DNA of 64,000 nucleotides from an uncultured Pseudomonadota bacterium (GCA_949289935.1 CASEQD010000005.1:2655-66654); one strand, 5' to 3'; positions 35,681 through 41,528 are shown, counted from the stretch's first letter. Notes: generated by a model from the letters alone, not told the origin. Translations and numbers: made by a program.

Positions 35681-35798
35681 GTTTGGAGTTCCTCATTTTG
35701 AAAATACAAATATCATACAGTATGATATTTAAAAAAACGATAAAAATCTTACTCCAATGGAAATATCCGTTAAAAAATCACAAAATAAAAAATAATGC

Positions 35799-35857: not shown

Positions 35858-35928
35858 GCCTCTATAGTTCAGATGCCGAAGGTGCGTCATTGGTCAGTGA
35901 TGTTGAACCGAAGGTGAAAGAGACGCAC
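35858..35928 (+). pseudogene. decayed tRNA-Thr-like copy (pseudo-tRNA)
   Basis: GCCTCTATAGTTCAG matches the tRNA-Thr 5' end GCCGCTATAGCTCAG at 13/15 positions. GCGTCATTGGTCAGTGATG resembles its anticodon arm. The D-arm is replaced by ATGCCGAAGGT, there is no T-arm or complementary acceptor 3' strand, and no CCA. Confidence 0.45.
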
Positions 35929-35941
35929 TTTTAATTATTAT

Positions 35942-36016
35942 GCCGCTATAGCTCAGTGGTAGAGCACGTCATTGGTAATGACGGGGTCGTAAGTCCGATT
36001 CTTACTAGCGGCACCA
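35942..36016 (+). tRNA. tRNA-Thr (anticodon GGU), non-canonical T-loop
   Basis: GCCGCTA/TAGCGGC acceptor, D-arm GCTC-AGTGGTA-GAGC, anticodon arm CGTCA-TTGGTAA-TGACG, T-arm GTAAG-TCCGATT-CTTAC and an encoded CCA. The T-loop has C where the near-universal U55 is expected. Confidence 0.75.
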
Positions 36017-36126
36017 TTTTTGATAATGCACCGTTAAAGGTGCTTTTTTTGTATCTATTCCAAGCCTTTCAGCCAGTCCGATTTTGAGAATTTTTAAAAG
36101 AACAAATTTTAGCAACTTATCGGACT
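35995..36126 (+). repeat. cassette-boundary module, copy 0 (includes the tRNA-Thr 3' end)
   Basis: AGTCCGAT...GGCACCA (tRNA T-arm to CCA), a terminator hairpin, then AGTCCGAT (36075-36082), 36 nt, and ATCGGACT (36119-36126). Confidence 0.8.
36028..36050 (+). terminator. rho-independent terminator after tRNA-Thr (part of module 0)
   Basis: GCACC-gttaaa-GGTGC followed by TTTTTTT. Confidence 0.7.
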
Positions 36127-36167
36127 TTTTTATAAAAAATTAATATCTCTGCATTTTAACAAAACTA

Positions 36168-36196
36168 TTTTCTTTTAACGAGAAGCATGATAAAAT
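36168..36196 (+). promoter_or_regulatory. candidate extended -10 promoter of cassette 1
   Basis: TG-A-TAAAAT (36188-36196), about 28 nt upstream of the ATG. The -35 is weak (TTTTCT). Confidence 0.3.
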
Positions 36197-36223
36197 AAGA
36201 TGAGATTATTGAAAGGGACATAA

Positions 36224-37021
36224 ATGGCAGATACTCTTGATATTAGCAATATGTTTGCATATGACATGTTTGAGGGAGATACAAAAGTTGGAACTTGTAA
36301 TATTTCAATCCATCCTCAATATAGTGGTTTTCAGTGTCCAGATACTTGGAAAGATAAATCTGTGTTAGAAATTGATGGCTTTGGAACCTTCCAAAGAAAT
36401 GGTTACGGACGCGCCGGATTACAAAAATGCTATGAGTTATCACAACAAATGGGATGTGAAGGACGTATAGTCGTTCATGCTACATGGGATGCGGGCTCTT
36501 TTTATGAACATTGTGGCTTTAACAGTAATAATCAAGGAAAACCAGGAATAAAATATTTTGAACCGACCTTTGAAAATTTGGAAAAATTATTTAAAGGTGG
36601 AAAAAAAGATAATTTCTTATTTAGAGAAAGTACACCTGATTTTAATGCTTTTGCGAACTTTAATTTTGATGATTTTGAGCTGCAAAAATCAAATCAAAAG
36701 AGATGCGATGATAATAAAAAGCCCGAACTAGACTTTAATCCTGAAGCAGGTTTAATTGAATATGCTGATAAGAACTTACAAAAAATTGCAGAGCTAAGAA
36801 AGAGAATAAAAAACAATAATATTGATCCGTTAGAACTTAAAGCCAAATCACTAGCTTCGAGCCTTGAAGAAATTGGCTTATCTAGAGATGATTTAGGCAA
36901 AACAGGGAATAGCAGGACAGGCGAAATAACTGAAAAGAATAGGAAAATTGCAAAAAGCCAAACGGAAGATGCTAAAGAGGCAATGTTACGAAATAAAAAA
37001 TTAAAGGAAGATTGTCGGTAA
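36224..37021 (+). CDS. GNAT-like N-acetyltransferase domain protein with charged C-terminal extension (cassette 1)
   Basis: FQRNGYGRAGLQKCYELS matches the R/Q-x-x-G-x-G/A acetyl-CoA loop, and FYEHCGF is present. The C-terminal ~130 aa are K/E/N-rich low complexity. The region is very AT-rich. Confidence 0.55.
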   Translation: MADTLDISNMFAYDMFEGDTKVGTCNISIHPQYSGFQCPDTWKDKSVLEIDGFGTFQRNGYGRAGLQKCYELSQQMGCEGRIVVHATWDAGSFYEHCGFNSNNQGKPGIKYFEPTFENLEKLFKGGKKDNFLFRESTPDFNAFANFNFDDFELQKSNQKRCDDNKKPELDFNPEAGLIEYADKNLQKIAELRKRIKNNNIDPLELKAKSLASSLEEIGLSRDDLGKTGNSRTGEITEKNRKIAKSQTEDAKEAMLRNKKLKEDCR

Positions 37022-37188
37022 TTTTTACCTAAAAAAATTACAACTTTTTATTTTTGAGAAAATTTAATGATTTTATACTAGAAGATGACATTTCTAAAGA
37101 ATAGCTTTTGACTTGATTTTTATACAAATTCTTTACTGTCAAACATATCAATTTTCTTACTCAAAAGCTTAAAATTATCATAAAATTT

Positions 37189-37326
37189 AGTCCGATAATT
37201 GCATAGTATCTCGCACCATTTTTAAGAATTCCGCCCAAGTGGCGGATTTTTTATTTTTAAACAAGAGATTATTTAGTCCGATTTTGTGAGTTTTGAAAAT
37301 GCCATTTTGGGCAAAGTTATCGGACT
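37189..37326 (+). repeat. cassette-boundary module, copy 1
   Basis: AGTCCGATAATTGCATAGTATCTCGCACCA (37189-37218). Hairpin CCGCC-caagt-GGCGG plus a T-run. AGTCCGAT (37275-37282), 36 nt, ATCGGACT (37319-37326). Confidence 0.8.
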
Positions 37327-37332
37327 TTTATC

Positions 37333-37361
37333 TTTACTTTACTTATTGCATCCTATATAAT
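37333..37361 (+). promoter_or_regulatory. candidate promoter of cassette 2
   Basis: TTTACT (37333-37338), 17-nt spacer, TATAAT (37356-37361), about 33 nt before the ATG at 37394. Confidence 0.4.
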
Positions 37362-37393
37362 CCTCACACAAATTGAAATAAGGATATGCATAA

Positions 37394-38158
37394 ATGGACT
37401 TATCAGTCAAAATAATGAGTAAAATTGACACATTATCAAGTATTTTGAATTTTCAAACGGATGATACATCTGTTTACTGGCGAGGAGCTTTATTCAAAGC
37501 TTATCCTTTTTTGGACGAAAAAAAATGTTTAAATATGGCTTGGAATGAAAGAAAAGAATATTTAACGGCAGAATTATCAAAAATCTATGATAAAATTGAA
37601 ATAGACTTACAAAAAAAATGTTTTATTTTCCAAAAAAGTTGGAAAGAAAACAAAGAAAAAATAAATCATATTTACACAAAAGTTTTTGGTATTGATTGCG
37701 ACAATCTTTTTAATACTATGATTGCAGAAGTTTCTCTTAATCCCATATGTCCCAGAAATCTCAGGCATCAAAGTTATTCTGTTACTTGGGCAGGAGATGA
37801 ACTTGACTTTCTAAAAACATCTCTTCATGAAATGGTTCATTTTGTTTGGTTTTATATATGGAAACAACATTTTAAAGATGATTGGTCTGAATATGAAGCA
37901 CCAAATTTAAAATGGATTTTAAGCGAAATGGTCATAGATACCTTTGTGAAAAATACAGATATCGGAAATATGTATCCTGAAAAGTATAAAAACAAACCAG
38001 CTTATAAATATTTTTATGATATGAAAATAAATAATCAAATTATTCTTGAAGAATTAACCTCTCTCTATATAAAGTCTAAAAATATAATACAATTTATGGT
38101 GGAAGCTTACTTATATTGTCAAATAAATGAAAAAGACATTAGACGGCAAATATTATAG
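37394..38158 (+). CDS. hypothetical HExxH protein (possible zincin-like) (cassette 2)
   Basis: 254 aa. SLHEMVHFVW has the HExxH motif, with a downstream Glu in LSEMVID 29 residues after the second His. No signal peptide. AT-rich. Confidence 0.5.
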   Translation: MDLSVKIMSKIDTLSSILNFQTDDTSVYWRGALFKAYPFLDEKKCLNMAWNERKEYLTAELSKIYDKIEIDLQKKCFIFQKSWKENKEKINHIYTKVFGIDCDNLFNTMIAEVSLNPICPRNLRHQSYSVTWAGDELDFLKTSLHEMVHFVWFYIWKQHFKDDWSEYEAPNLKWILSEMVIDTFVKNTDIGNMYPEKYKNKPAYKYFYDMKINNQIILEELTSLYIKSKNIIQFMVEAYLYCQINEKDIRRQIL

Positions 38159-38190
38159 TTAATTTTCCTATTTTAAGCCTCATACTCACT

Positions 38191-38330
38191 AGTCCGATAA
38201 CTGCACAGTATCGCGCACCATTTTTAAGAATGCACCCTTTGAGGTGCTTTTTTGTATGTGTTCCAAAGCCTTGCAAAGAGTCCGATTTTGGAAATTTTTA
38301 ATTTAGCATTTTTTACAAAGTTATCGGACT
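38191..38330 (+). repeat. cassette-boundary module, copy 2
   Basis: AGTCCGATAACTGCACAGTATCGCGCACCA (38191-38220). Hairpin GCACC-ctttga-GGTGC plus a T-run. AGTCCGAT (38279-38286), 36 nt, ATCGGACT (38323-38330). An extra AGTCCGATAA box lies at 38379-38388. Confidence 0.8.
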
Positions 38331-38557
38331 TTTTGATGAAAAGCCAATAAATTTAAGCATTTTATCTTCTAAAATTCTAGTCCGATAAAAATGATTGAAA
38401 ATTTAATTTATTCAGCATAACATTTTGACTATGGATATTTTAATTATAATCATAGCAGTAACTTTTTATGCCACTTGTAAAACGTGGCGAAATCTGTTTA
38501 ACCAAGAACAAAATCCGATTTATACTTGCAAAACTCTGCCGGGTGAGGAGATAAAAC

Positions 38558-39373
38558 ATGAACAAAAATTTAACATTTGCTGGTGCGGCGATTGTTATTC
38601 TTGGATTGTCGATGAGCATAGACTCTTTGTGTGCAAATACGCTTTCTGAAAAGAATGAGAATTTATCTATCGGCGAGGAAGTATTTTTTAATCCCTATAC
38701 TGGTTTACCATGTCATGAAACGGATGCTTGGAATCAAAGCAATCATACCAGCGAATGCTACCGCTGGCATGTTATCAAAGACAACGGCGACAGTTGTGAT
38801 TTGTTGCTCGATCACAACCTCGGTGCCAGAGTGCCGTGGTTAAGTTACGAAGATTTTATTTCGGCCGGCGGTACTCCTGACAAATACGGCGCCTCGGGCA
38901 ATAATCGCTACGGGCCGTTGACCGCGTTAAAAGAGCTGCAAAAGACTACCGGGTCGTTTAAAAATGTTGAAATCTTGACTGCTGATGACAATGTATCGCG
39001 TTCCGTCGGCGGCGCAGGCTATACCGTTGATTACACCGGTTATAAAGCACGGTTGATAAGCGCGGCAGAGCTGGCTGCTCTGTCTGCTAGCAAACCAATG
39101 AAAGATGGCAATGCTTGGCAAGCCTCAAGCGGCAGTTATATTCACGCTTTGCCTCAATGGCTTTATACAAATCTCGGCCGTCCGGATATAGCGCAGCCCG
39201 AGATTCATGTCGCCTACTATACCGATACTGCGCACGCCGTCAAATCGGATACTGTCTGGGTAGTTTGTCTGGGCAGCAATCTTGGCAAAGCTTCCGTAAC
39301 CACAATGAGCCGTTATGGACAGGAACTTTTGGGTATTCGTCCGGTCATCAAAGTAAAGAAAAACAAGCTATGA
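38558..39373 (+). CDS. secreted protein, DUF1566-like C-terminus (cassette 3)
   Basis: Signal peptide MNKNLTFAGAAIVILGLSMSIDSLCA, with a GAGGAG RBS 7 nt upstream. The ARLISAAELAAL and C-terminal GIRPVIKV motifs parallel WCLPSGGVL and VRPVIEF in 28426..29304. Confidence 0.55.
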   Translation: MNKNLTFAGAAIVILGLSMSIDSLCANTLSEKNENLSIGEEVFFNPYTGLPCHETDAWNQSNHTSECYRWHVIKDNGDSCDLLLDHNLGARVPWLSYEDFISAGGTPDKYGASGNNRYGPLTALKELQKTTGSFKNVEILTADDNVSRSVGGAGYTVDYTGYKARLISAAELAALSASKPMKDGNAWQASSGSYIHALPQWLYTNLGRPDIAQPEIHVAYYTDTAHAVKSDTVWVVCLGSNLGKASVTTMSRYGQELLGIRPVIKVKKNKL

Positions 39374-39445
39374 TAAGCGAAGATTGTTTGCAACATATGA
39401 TATTGAATAATATTTGTATTTACTCCTGTTGTACTAACAAAATAA

Positions 39446-39730
39446 CCATCCAAAGTCCTGGCCTTTGCTTTCAGTCTGGCGGCGGAAATAGAAAGAAACT
39501 TAATCTCCCAAAGGACTAAATCATCTCTTGCTAATCTTAAAGCGTCTGGCAAGAAACTCGGACGCCCGTTTTCCGCAGAGTCAAAAAAGCTCAAACTCTC
39601 AAAAAATGCTAAAAAGGTACGGAATTTATTATCTAAAGGCATCTCCAAGTCCCAAATTGCTAAAATCCTCGGCGTCCAGCGCAGCACATTGAGGCGGTTT
39701 ATTGAAAGAATATCTGAAACAAAGGCTTAA
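39446..39730 (+). pseudogene. serine recombinase (resolvase/invertase) remnant; C-terminal half only
   Basis: Hand translation gives PSKVLAFAFSLAAEIERNLISQRTKSSLANLKASGKKLGRPFS...SKSQIAKILGVQRSTLRRFIERI. This matches the resolvase E-helix (AE.ER.LI..RT) plus the GRP linker and HTH. An in-frame stop at 39443 leaves no catalytic Ser domain. Confidence 0.7.
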
Positions 39731-39754
39731 CATCTCTTCAAACTTACTAAGAAA

Positions 39755-41008
39755 TTATATATCCAAGCAATTAGGATTTAGCAAAAATTCTTTTAACCCT
39801 AAAATTAAAATACCGTCATCATCTTGATAGGTCGCCACATCATCCTTTACAATAATTATTTTTTTAAATGAATCACCTATTTTTAATAAAGAGCGTTTTT
39901 CTTGAGTTTCTTTTGCTTTTGTTGGCATTTGTAAGGCTGATTGAATATAATATTTTTTATAACCGCAGTTTACTACAAAATCAACTTCTGTTTTTTTGTT
40001 AATGTATGTATTATTGGCTTGTTTTTCTTTAATAAGAACCTCTCCAACGTCAACATCACAGCCACGAATTTTCAATTCATTATAGATTATATTTTCCATG
40101 ATATGGCTTTCTTCTGTTTGCCTAAATCGTAAACGCGAATTTCGTAATCCTAAATCAGTAAAATAGTATTTAGATGGAGTGTTTATATATTTTTTACCTT
40201 TAATGTCATAACGCAACGCATTACTAATTAAAAAAGAATCTTGCAAATAATCAATATAGTTTTTAATTGTAGGCGCTGAAATATCTAGTTTTTTTACGCT
40301 CTTAAAAGTATTGGTTAATATTAACGGATTTACTAAGCAACCAATATCTGAAGCTAAAATATTTATTAATTCTTCTAGTTCTTCATCATTGCGGATATTA
40401 TGCCGGTCTTTGATATCTTGAATATATGTTTCAGTAAATAAAGACTGTAAATACTTCCGTTTTTCTTCATCTGTTTGACGAGATAAAATCATAGGCATAC
40501 CACCATAAGTATAATATTCTTTCCATGCATCAATCCAAGATCCTTCATAAACAGAAAAGAATTCTGCAAAACTGAGAGGATAAACCCTGATTTCATCTCC
40601 TCTACCTCTAAATTCCGTTACAATGTCGGTAGATAAAAATTTAGAATTGCTTCCGGTTACATATACATCTAAATTTTCAATGTGTAAAAAGCCATTTAAA
40701 ACATCTGAAAAATTATCCATTAGCTGAACTTCATCTAATAACAAATAATGCATTTCAGAATCAATGATATGTGATTTGACATAGTTATAACATTCATCTG
40801 GTTGACGATATTTCATATTTGGATAGTCATCTAAAGCCAAAGTAATGATTCTTTTTTCAGAAACCCCTTCATCCAGCAAATGTTGCTTGAAAAGTTGAAA
40901 CAATAAATAGGATTTACCACAGCGTCTTATTCCACTAACTATTTTAACTAATCCGTTGTGTTTTTTGTTGATTAGTTGAGTAAGGTAATTTGTTCTTTCA
41001 ATTTTCAC
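39755..41008 (-). CDS. AAA+ ATPase, DUF4143-type ATP-binding protein
   Basis: 417 aa. N-terminal R.NYL..LI......VKIVSGIRRCGKSYLL (Walker A) and a LLLDEVQ Walker B-like motif. The layout is typical of the AAA_14/DUF4143 family. Confidence 0.75.
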   Translation of the reverse strand: MKIERTNYLTQLINKKHNGLVKIVSGIRRCGKSYLLFQLFKQHLLDEGVSEKRIITLALDDYPNMKYRQPDECYNYVKSHIIDSEMHYLLLDEVQLMDNFSDVLNGFLHIENLDVYVTGSNSKFLSTDIVTEFRGRGDEIRVYPLSFAEFFSVYEGSWIDAWKEYYTYGGMPMILSRQTDEEKRKYLQSLFTETYIQDIKDRHNIRNDEELEELINILASDIGCLVNPLILTNTFKSVKKLDISAPTIKNYIDYLQDSFLISNALRYDIKGKKYINTPSKYYFTDLGLRNSRLRFRQTEESHIMENIIYNELKIRGCDVDVGEVLIKEKQANNTYINKKTEVDFVVNCGYKKYYIQSALQMPTKAKETQEKRSLLKIGDSFKKIIIVKDDVATYQDDDGILILGLKEFLLNPNCLDI

Positions 41009-41235
41009 AACACCCTCCTATTTTAAATAATTGTACACATGTCAAGTTTTATAAAATATACTGTTAAAAGTTTTTGTTGTCAATGTTTATTTTAAAAATT
41101 CATACAACTGTTCAGTTTTATAAAATAAGATGCAGCTGTCTGAAAATATTATGCCAGTAGTAAATTTGATTTGGTAATGCCACAATCAAACAACTCAATT
41201 TTCCTACCCAAGTCTTTAAATTCCTCATATTCGTT

Positions 41236-41397
41236 AGTCCGATAATCGCATAGTATCGCGCACCATTTGTTAATTTCTGGCGTTTTTAGCAGCTTATCGA
41301 ACGGTCTAGCTATTGAAAAAGCTATATTTTTTCCATCAGTTTTGCAGTCCGATAATATTAGTTTTAAAATGTCTCTTTTTTGTGAAATAATCGAACT
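41236..41397 (+). repeat. cassette-boundary module, copy 3 (degenerate, terminal)
   Basis: AGTCCGATAATCGCATAGTATCGCGCACCA (41236-41265). Hairpin TAGCT-attgaaaa-AGCTA plus T-rich sequence. AGTCCGAT (41346-41353), 36 nt, ATCGAACT (41390-41397, one G>A change). Confidence 0.7.
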
Positions 41398-41528
41398 TTT
41401 TAAGAATTTTTCAACATTTGCAGATGCCTTCTTAATTTGGAGGTTTTTAAAACGGATGATATTGCAAAAAAAACAATGAGGCGTAAAAAAGGGATTGTAA
41501 AATTGTCTTACAATCCCTTTTCTTTTTA

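Follow-up and report, generated by a model that had tools for sequence, protein, structure and literature searches.

Palindromes of fixed geometry in a putative recombinase-derived attachment module of tRNA-anchored gene cassettes from gut Alphaproteobacteria

In a window of 64,000 nt from an uncultured Pseudomonadota bacterium (GCA_949289935.1 CASEQD010000005.1:2655-66654; one strand, 5' to 3', which is the whole stretch analysed here), a tRNA-Thr(GGU) gene is followed by an array of cargo genes separated by palindromes with two 8-nt arms and a 36-nt spacer. We lean towards the reading that this palindrome is a double-stranded recognition site at the outer edge of an attachment (att) module derived from a large serine recombinase (LSR) gene, with the zinc-ribbon domain of the LSR as its probable binder. 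The case is built on the comparison of DNA and protein sequences. The intergenic stretches of the array are homologous to each other and represent copies of one module of ~200 bp, which comprises a relic of a recombinase tail (~45 nt), a box (AGTCCGAT and 16 nt) that leads into the core GCACCA/TTT, a terminator, the palindrome at ~25 nt from the terminator, and a final TTT. After the tRNA the layout is the same, with the tRNA 3' end (AGTCCGAT, 11 nt and GCACCA) in place of the box.

Exact AGTCCGAT-N36-ATCGGACT units lie at 36075-36126, 37275-37326 and 38279-38330, with none expected from 100 shuffles, and a fourth copy at 41346-41397 has ATCGAACT as its right arm due to a single G>A change. 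The four palindromes listed in the original prediction, which was made from the sequence of the window alone, are thereby confirmed. The 8-mer AGTCCGAT, hereafter called the word, occurs 14 times in the window compared to ~1 expected, and 12 of the 14 copies fall within 35992-41353. A scan for the box pattern, with one genome per species and the palindrome not used as a selection criterion, identified 79 related loci, all of them in metagenome-assembled genomes of gut or rumen Alphaproteobacteria and representing ~70 species. The arrays mostly begin at tRNA-Thr(GGU), but also at tRNA-Leu(UAA) and tRNA-Thr(CGU), whose T arms lack the word. Inverted word pairs in these loci are spaced by 36 nt in 79 of 85 cases and by 35 or 37 nt in three cases each, in support of the constant spacer noted before; apart from these, spacings of up to 120 nt comprise 13 pairs at 77-112 nt.

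The palindrome also keeps a set distance from the core. In the box-selected loci 40 units start 56-59 nt from the core and 7 exactly 80 nt from it, and this distance is kept within ~2 nt while the terminator in between changes its sequence with compensated stems. A second sample came from a metagenome scan that selected for the palindrome and yielded at least 120 loci. Among the matches listed, 131 units were examined, and 106 of them lie 55-59 nt (82) or 79-81 nt (24) downstream of GCACCA. Four units are too close to a contig end to be judged; the other 21 were inspected by eye, and about half are unrelated GC-rich chance matches, the rest being module variants with a mutated core. Since the genuine units stand at a set distance from GCACCA, the palindrome is never free-standing. 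In agreement with the original prediction, which took the geometry to be conserved, the fixed spacer together with the fixed core distance across related loci points to a geometry under selection. In viral contigs, 65 palindrome matches with a gap of 26-46 nt showed a flat spacing and unrelated GC-rich contexts and were set aside as chance background. The LSR protein has no relative in viral contigs, so the element is not evidently a phage.

The interiors of the palindromes had been described as divergent. This holds for their sequence, but not for T/A tracts at fixed positions, which are kept over 78 copies: positions 17-20 (TTTT/Y), 22-25 (AAAA/W), 32-36 (TTTTT), 40-41 (AA), 43-44 (TT) and 53-55 (TTT). 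The tracts are roughly phased with a period of ~11 nt, TTT follows the right arm in every copy, and conservation stops at position 55-56. The central dinucleotide is variable, with 12-13 different ones. Inspection of the interior by eye gave no consistent match to an IHF, DnaA or CtrA consensus, and the aligned copies contain no conserved -10 element at a fixed position inside the palindrome. The symmetry is limited to 8 nt, since TT comes after the left arm in copies 1-3, compared to AA after the reverse-complemented right arm. Two details of the earlier description have to be corrected. The GTT before the right arm is found in copies 2 and 3 instead of 1 and 2 (copy 1 reads CTT). Pairing of TTTG with CAAA next to the arms is confined to copies 2 and 3, and it is not kept in the family, where this inner helix (positions 9-12 with 38-41) is paired in 64% of cells. 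The left arm plus AA was equated with the box start; indeed, AGTCCGATAA opens three boxes (37189, 38191, 41236), TTATCGGACT ends palindromes 1-3, and the box start shares 12 nt with the reverse complement of the palindrome right end, but the left arm itself continues with TT in palindromes 1-3.

Conservation of structure rather than sequence, with recognition as a folded single strand like integron attC sites or the ends of IS200/IS605 and other HUH elements, was the interpretation originally put forward. An 8-bp stem is possible, the geometry is fixed, the units separate cassettes, and one cargo family has a weak Rep match (REP_ORF2-G2P). Folds as single-stranded DNA are weak (-5.7 to -8.5 kcal/mol) and rest on the arms, although copies 2 and 3 fold better than shuffles (z of -3.4 and -4.6). 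In contrast to what a folded site predicts, the arms are invariant in sequence across ~70 species and in LSR genes down to 41% identity. Both arms are exact in 87 copies, one is mutated in 21 and both are mutated in 2, with no compensatory change among these 23 mutated copies, and an alignment of 87 sequences contains no arm pair with changes on both sides. Covariation of the inner helix (0.093) is no better than that of structures slid by -2 or -3 columns (0.087-0.109), and RNAalifold found no consensus pairs in the palindrome alignment. Integron attC sites vary in length (~57-141 nt) and consist of R''/L''-L'/R' boxes with a GTTRRRY core, whereas the unit has no GTTRRRY-type core, shows GTT before the right arm in a subset of copies only, keeps to 52 nt within 1 nt and is not linked to an IntI-type enzyme. 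The enzyme that is linked is a serine recombinase, and such enzymes act on duplex DNA; a Pfam search of 10 window open reading frames (ORFs) and five cargo families detected neither a tyrosine recombinase nor a strong match to HUH enzymes, and the joints between cassettes lie at GCACCA, outside the unit. Recognition as a hairpin is therefore very improbable, and the palindrome appears not to be an attC-type folded site. The lack of compensation and covariation together with the conserved T/A tracts indicates a duplex site read by a protein, which is close to the second option of the original prediction, a DNA-binding protein with a fixed span, and fits the conserved arms and spacing.

The origin of the module can be traced to an LSR gene. 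An ORF on the opposite strand, with Pfam Recombinase and Zn_ribbon_recom domains, encloses the box and the palindrome in its 'AATATTA' form (that of copy 4 in the window) in several loci; its full-length homologues (514-548 aa) also have the Resolvase catalytic domain, which identifies the protein as an LSR. Translated in the direction of the LSR gene, the palindrome arms give K-S-P-I (AAA AGT CCG AT.) and L-S-D (TTA TCG GAC) and the box gives ...ILCDYRTN...; at the core, AAA TGG TGC, which is GCACCATTT in reverse complement, encodes K-W-C. The G>A change of palindrome 4 corresponds to Pro>Ser in an LSR relic (translation of 41185-41455), and the ~45 nt ahead of the other boxes are relics of the same LSR tail. 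Judged from these matches, the module derives from the 3' end of an LSR gene and copy 4 is a gene relic. Intact LSR genes adjoin tRNA-Thr and end in KWC(R), and the LSR appears to be carried by an element whose integration sites are tRNA 3' ends, in most cases that of tRNA-Thr(GGU). The box was also considered as a tRNA fragment; this was rejected, since it does not follow T-arm/acceptor geometry, neither Rfam nor ARAGORN calls it, and it is recombinase coding sequence. Searches with the LSR gave no match among PDB sequences and only a distant XisF-type match, well below the cut-off, in NCBIfam.

A codon alignment of six LSR genes with 41-95% identity shows AGT CCG and TTA TCG GAC to be invariant, while codons next to the arms vary synonymously, including that of a nearby serine (TCT/TCG/AGC). 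Box and arm variants do occur across LSR lineages, e.g. AGTCTGAT boxes and a TTCGGACT arm. The homologue with 41% identity, located at tRNA-Gly(UCC), has AGTCCGAT-N36-TTCGGACT exactly 80 nt from GCACCA. Arm codons frozen down to this identity argue for a signal at the DNA level that is carried along with the recombinase family. In L145 (11655), L146 (5882) and L147/L148 (11603), all with the LSR in minus orientation, the word is found once more, ~20 nt ahead of the LSR start codon (TTATCGGACTaattttAAGGAG..ATG on the gene strand). It is confined to one lineage and absent from L149 and L151-L153, and it may serve autoregulation.

With a dead gene as the source of palindrome 4, homologous modules and 12 nt shared between box start and palindrome right end, the units could also be regarded as functionless recombinase relics or as a 140-bp miniature inverted-repeat transposable element with AGTCCGATAAyT inverted repeats, copied along with duplicated intergenic DNA. 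Arms and spacing stay intact, however, while interiors, terminators and cargo diverge; 87 exact compared to 23 damaged copies were counted in representatives of ~70 genome species, and the genuine copies all stand at a set distance from a tRNA or box core, none being scattered. We regard this as the least probable of the explanations considered.

The features of the array are as follows.

35942..36016, plus strand: tRNA-Thr(GGU) gene (ARAGORN; Rfam, 70.8 bits)
35992-35999: AGTCCGAT within the T arm of tRNA-Thr
36011-36016: GCACCA core at the tRNA 3' end, putative attB-type left half (from the junction classes)
36028..36050, plus strand: intrinsic terminator between core and palindrome 1 (terminator scan)
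36075..36126, no strand: palindrome 1, start 58 nt past GCACCA
36224..37021, plus strand: cargo gene 1, GNAT-like, 265 aa (Pfam; cassette c91)
37139-37188, plus strand: recombinase-tail relic; the reverse complement of relic plus box 1 (37139..37218) reads KWCEILCNYRTKFYDNF, like the LSR C-terminus
37189-37218, plus strand: box 1, putative attP-type left half-site (AGTCCGAT, 16 nt, GCACCA)
37230..37252, plus strand: intrinsic terminator of module 2 (terminator scan)
37275..37326, no strand: palindrome 2, start 56 nt past GCACCA
37394..38158, plus strand: cargo gene 2, 254 aa, HExxH motif (cassette c24)
38191..38220, plus strand: box 2, with the GCACCA core at 38215-38220
38232..38253, plus strand: intrinsic terminator of module 3 (terminator scan)
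38279..38330, no strand: palindrome 3, start 58 nt past GCACCA
38379..38386, plus strand: extra word copy, AGTCCGATAA, exactly 100 nt after the start of palindrome 3
38558..39373, plus strand: cargo gene 3, 271 aa, no family match, N-terminal hydrophobic segment (signal peptide by eye)
39440..39731, plus strand: truncated small serine recombinase, C-terminal 93 residues (HTH_7), catalytic domain missing
39755..41008, minus strand: AAA_14/DUF4143 ATPase cargo gene (Pfam)
41185..41455, minus strand: relic of the last ~85 LSR codons (translation; homologues P0001-P0098; Pfam)
41236-41265: box 3, inside the LSR relic, reading KWCAILCDYRTN
41346..41397, no strand: palindrome 4, recombinase-gene form, start 80 nt past GCACCA

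When the loci are anchored on GCACCA, four types of junction are found: the tRNA joined to terminator and palindrome (13), a box joined to terminator and palindrome (27), a box joined to the 80-nt stretch, palindrome and LSR gene (5), and the tRNA joined to the same 80-nt, palindrome and LSR arrangement (2). The last type is also present in 8 of 8 tRNA-Thr LSR loci fetched by means of intact homologues (L145-L152). As read from these junctions, the four classes form the complete attB/attR/attP/attL set for an exchange at or beside GCACCA(TTT). A direct comparison points to the same place. The window from 40950 to 41268 is 97% identical to locus L117 through the ATPase gene, its promoter, the recombinase tail and the box up to GCACCATTT, beyond which the window continues into the LSR relic and L117 into terminator and palindrome. 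Because homology between the loci breaks exactly at GCACCATTT, the crossover is placed there and not in the palindrome, which lies 56-80 nt away. The expectation that the units are part of a site-specific recombination system is borne out by their link to the LSR and to this crossover core.

Two other crossover positions were considered and rejected. An exchange at the palindrome centre predicts junctions in which tRNA, terminator and a hybrid palindrome lead into the LSR gene; these were not seen, and the observed junctions fit GCACCA. An exchange in the word or T loop, as in the classical model for tRNA integrases, does not agree with a box that differs from the tRNA 3' end past AGTCCGAT. 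Neither a convincing dyad symmetry around GCACCA nor a convincing second word in the right half-sites was found; TTATCGAACGG, 31 nt to the right in the gene form, is weak and not conserved.

Further joints were observed in related loci. A Fic cassette (cluster 0; L072, L076, L084, L095, L113, L124, L135, L144) lies between two direct copies of recombinase tail plus AGTCCGATAATTGC. Its left copy is cut 6 nt past the word, a second type of joint that is not at GCACCA and is present in many species. Non-coding mini-inserts of 200-250 nt follow exactly after the GCACCA of a tRNA or box (L075, 2614-2860 and 3908-4150; L082, 7071-7260; L102, 1081-1270; L125, 230-640, two in tandem; L095, 1378-1575). 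They hold a terminator and an inverted T-arm-like hairpin, end in a duplicated tRNA-Thr 3' end (e.g. cttgccagcgGCACCA) and look like a second, tiny element using the same core.

The units between the modules behave as cassettes. Similarity upstream and downstream of the palindrome is uncoupled, with the weakest linkage across its right arm: between loci L093 and L135, identity extends as far as ATCGGACTTTT and all relationship ends there. Conversely, the HExxH cassette is 97-100% identical between the window and L117 from the palindrome right arm to just past the stop codon, while the modules flanking it differ. Cassettes c91 and c24 stand in opposite order in the two loci, so that c91, with cargo gene 1, takes another array position in L117, and c24 occurs alone in L101 and L118. 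On these grounds the palindrome appears to be the outer limit of the cis region that is kept by recombinase-less cassettes. The cargo genes of the array are mutually unrelated, and every cassette comes with a terminator and usually a promoter of its own. Cargo in the related loci L066-L144 includes Fic, NERD plus topoisomerase zinc finger, HNH endonuclease, restriction-modification (DpnII, methyltransferases), AAA_14 ATPase and a weakly Rep-like family; going by the domain names, these are of kinds frequently connected with defence or toxins. One and the same cargo family can be found in either orientation relative to the module. The extra word of the window, 100 nt from palindrome 3, recurs in the context aaaatcccAGTCCGATaa in at least 11 cassettes elsewhere (L076, L082, L098, L099, L102, L111, L114, L120, L138).

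The position of palindromes 1-3 between a terminator and a cargo promoter (e.g. TTTACT-17-TATAAT, 37333-37361), the phasing of the T tracts by ~11 nt and the TTT that always follows the right arm would suit a transcription signal as well, i.e. an UP-element, an operator, a back-up terminator or an insulator. The next ORF after the palindrome is, however, on the plus strand in 44 cases and convergent on the minus strand in 26 of the 70, and plus-strand ORFs that start after the palindrome do so at a distance of 23-447 nt. Since the distance to the core is fixed while strand and gap of the next gene vary, the palindrome is tied to the core and not to the cargo gene. There is no -35 or -10 element at a fixed position, and within the LSR coding region the motif occurs as well, with its synonymous sites frozen. 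As for a terminator, a loop of 36 nt would be atypical, a canonical terminator is already located 20-30 nt upstream, and the unit is absent from the terminator scan. A transcriptional role is thus improbable.

How an LSR might use the palindrome is suggested by the position of the word. The zinc-ribbon domain of serine integrases recognises a motif of 7-9 bp that occupies positions 16-24 of the attP half-site and lies 5 bp closer to the centre in attB (PMC3783163, Rutherford et al. 2013). Here, word and GCACCA are 16 nt apart in the box and 11 nt apart in tRNA-Thr, which is a shift of the same 5 bp. The 52-bp palindrome carries its 8-bp words 19-26 bp from the centre, compared to positions 16-24 in attP of the LI integrase, and the box word would share this register with a crossover at the CA of GCACCA. 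The 5-bp shift and the shared register lead us to propose the word as the motif read by the zinc ribbon in this LSR family. Two LSR subunits would then most likely bind the palindrome via their zinc-ribbon domains, and the palindrome could act as an accessory docking site in attP register for an extra LSR dimer that helps to assemble or gate the synapse at the core. With 58 nt in the cassette form compared to 80 nt in the gene form, it would be placed two helical turns nearer to the core in cassettes. Single-gene cassettes without recombinase keep only the module and, to judge by the pattern of the arrays, are inserted, lost and reordered at the core, with catalysis presumably provided by the LSR in trans.

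Several observations weigh against the LSR as the binder. By eye, the right half of the core lacks the word in either register, while a canonical LSR site would have one, and the inner 12-13 bp of the palindrome half-site are unlike the inner part of the box, so that the usual contacts of the recombinase domain would be missing. The targets tRNA-Leu(UAA), tRNA-Thr(CGU) and tRNA-Gly(UCC) do not carry the word in their T arms, which means that it is not required on the attB side. Tandem insertion beside an occupied site contrasts with the canonical restriction to attP x attB. The window holds no intact LSR, and the intact LSR loci that were fetched are without a cassette array. Large serine recombinases are not known to use accessory sites. 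Finally, there is a similarity between the word and TGTCTGATAATTT, the half-site of the Tn3 resolvase, and some of the elements are accompanied by a gene for a small resolvase.

The last point leads to the question of whether another protein binds the palindrome as an accessory or regulatory site of the res type, with a role in multimer or cointegrate resolution, directionality or repression. A host factor is conceivable, but the best candidate is a small serine recombinase of 198 aa (Resolvase and HTH_7), which is intact beside the LSR in L149 and L150 and left as relics in the window (39440-39731) and in L077, L094, L106 and L133. AGTCCGATAAyTT matches TGTCTGATAATTT at 8 of the first 10 bases and at 10-11 of 13 overall. 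In Tn3 and gamma-delta res (site I plus accessory sites II and III), extra inverted-repeat sites at a set distance from the crossover organise the synapse in a similar way, and the core right half without a word as well as the inner palindrome bases unlike the box are awkward for an LSR. Res sites consist of inverted 12-bp half-sites of the TGTCYGATAA type and have a total span of 25-34 bp, which the 52-bp palindrome with its 24-28 bp between 12-bp half-sites exceeds; the module also differs from res in having one accessory unit and in its association with a large serine recombinase. The small enzyme is absent from most loci, including the palindrome-bearing LSR element of 41% identity, whereas the palindrome forms part of the LSR gene and is present or absent together with it, and the 5-bp offset between box and tRNA is specifically an LSR property. 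We therefore consider a different binder unlikely and keep to the LSR zinc ribbon as the preferred one.

Some peculiarities concern the tRNA and the flanks of the array. The T loop of the tRNA-Thr(GGU), TCCGATT (35993-35999), has a C where U55 is almost universal. The same loop is found in every tRNA-Thr(GGU) of the related loci, with compensatory changes in the T stem (GTAAG/CTTAC, GCAAG/CTTGC, GTGAG/CTCAC). A loop kept in all loci next to compensated stems argues for a functional peculiarity of the clade with which the recombinase word coincides. Positions 35858-35905, shortly before the actual gene, are a duplicated 5' half of tRNA-Thr including the upstream ATTATGCC, called by neither ARAGORN nor Rfam, which suggests an old rearrangement at the tRNA. 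An inverted repeat of 27 nt (85% complementary, 35702-35728 and 39395-39421) flanks the tRNA and the first three cassettes. The promoter region of the AAA_14/DUF4143 gene contains two direct repeats of 40 nt with 80% identity (41019-41058 and 41088-41127), a possible operator that is likewise conserved in L117. The G+C content drops from ~47% to ~30% from 36 to ~44.5 kb.

Compared with known LSR att sites (A118/LI, Bxb1, phiC31; Rutherford et al. 2013, PMC3783163), the system shares an enzyme with Resolvase, Recombinase and Zn_ribbon_recom domains, a ~50-bp palindrome whose half-sites carry a recognition motif of 7-9 bp at their outer ends, a motif 5 bp nearer to the crossover on the bacterial side, and an att site overlapping the end of the recombinase gene. 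It differs in that the palindrome stands 56-80 bp aside from the crossover and its central dinucleotide is not conserved, that only one half of the core has the motif, and that the conserved cis region extends over ~200 bp compared to 40-50 bp. Several tRNAs are targeted, and the arrays imply reactions beyond attP x attB. Tycheposons (Hackl et al., bioRxiv 10.1101/2020.12.28.424599) and the accretion of cis-mobilizable and integrative mobilizable elements at att sites are similar with regard to integration at tRNAs including tRNA-Thr(GGU), an integrase that can be an LSR, newcomers that push older units inward, degraded integrases and att remnants, and cargo for defence or niche adaptation. 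Signs of tandem accretion are indeed present, namely the tRNA 3' end, an adjacent integrase, the four junction types and degraded tandem copies. In contrast to those elements, the units here are mostly single genes of ~1 kb, each with a ~200-bp module and a palindrome of fixed geometry, the repeated 'tRNA remnant' is the tail of a recombinase gene, and the hosts are gut Alphaproteobacteria.

With integrons the arrays have in common ordered, promoter-proximal single-gene cassettes, imperfect-palindrome sites, and sharing and reordering between genomes. They differ by a serine instead of a tyrosine recombinase, recognition of duplex sequence, a fixed site length, an own terminator and usually an own promoter for each cassette, and an array anchored on a tRNA 3' end. 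What is unusual is the long module with three words, a palindrome of fixed geometry that is not the crossover site, and the relic of a recombinase tail as a repeated tRNA surrogate. A limited literature search found no description of the module, and searching for the word gave only unrelated primers. More tentatively, and with some doubt on our side, the system might be a serine-recombinase counterpart of the integron, with a three-word site of ~200 bp, in which one word belongs to the crossover half-site and two form a palindrome of attP geometry 56-80 bp away, with single-gene cassettes captured, stacked and shuffled in trans at tRNA 3' ends, and with the first accessory site described for an LSR.

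Large serine recombinases are valued in genome engineering for their short and simple sites. If the proposed role of the palindrome is true, a natural LSR family with a long multi-word site and an accessory palindrome would widen the known mechanistic range of these enzymes, and reactions beyond attP x attB could suggest directionality control or the building of cassette arrays. The module of box, GCACCA, terminator and palindrome provides a simple tag for finding such cassettes in metagenomes. For the uncultured Alphaproteobacteria of gut and rumen, the array represents a hot spot of gene exchange, with cargo of kinds often linked to defence or toxins, such as Fic, NERD, HNH, restriction-modification and AAA ATPases.

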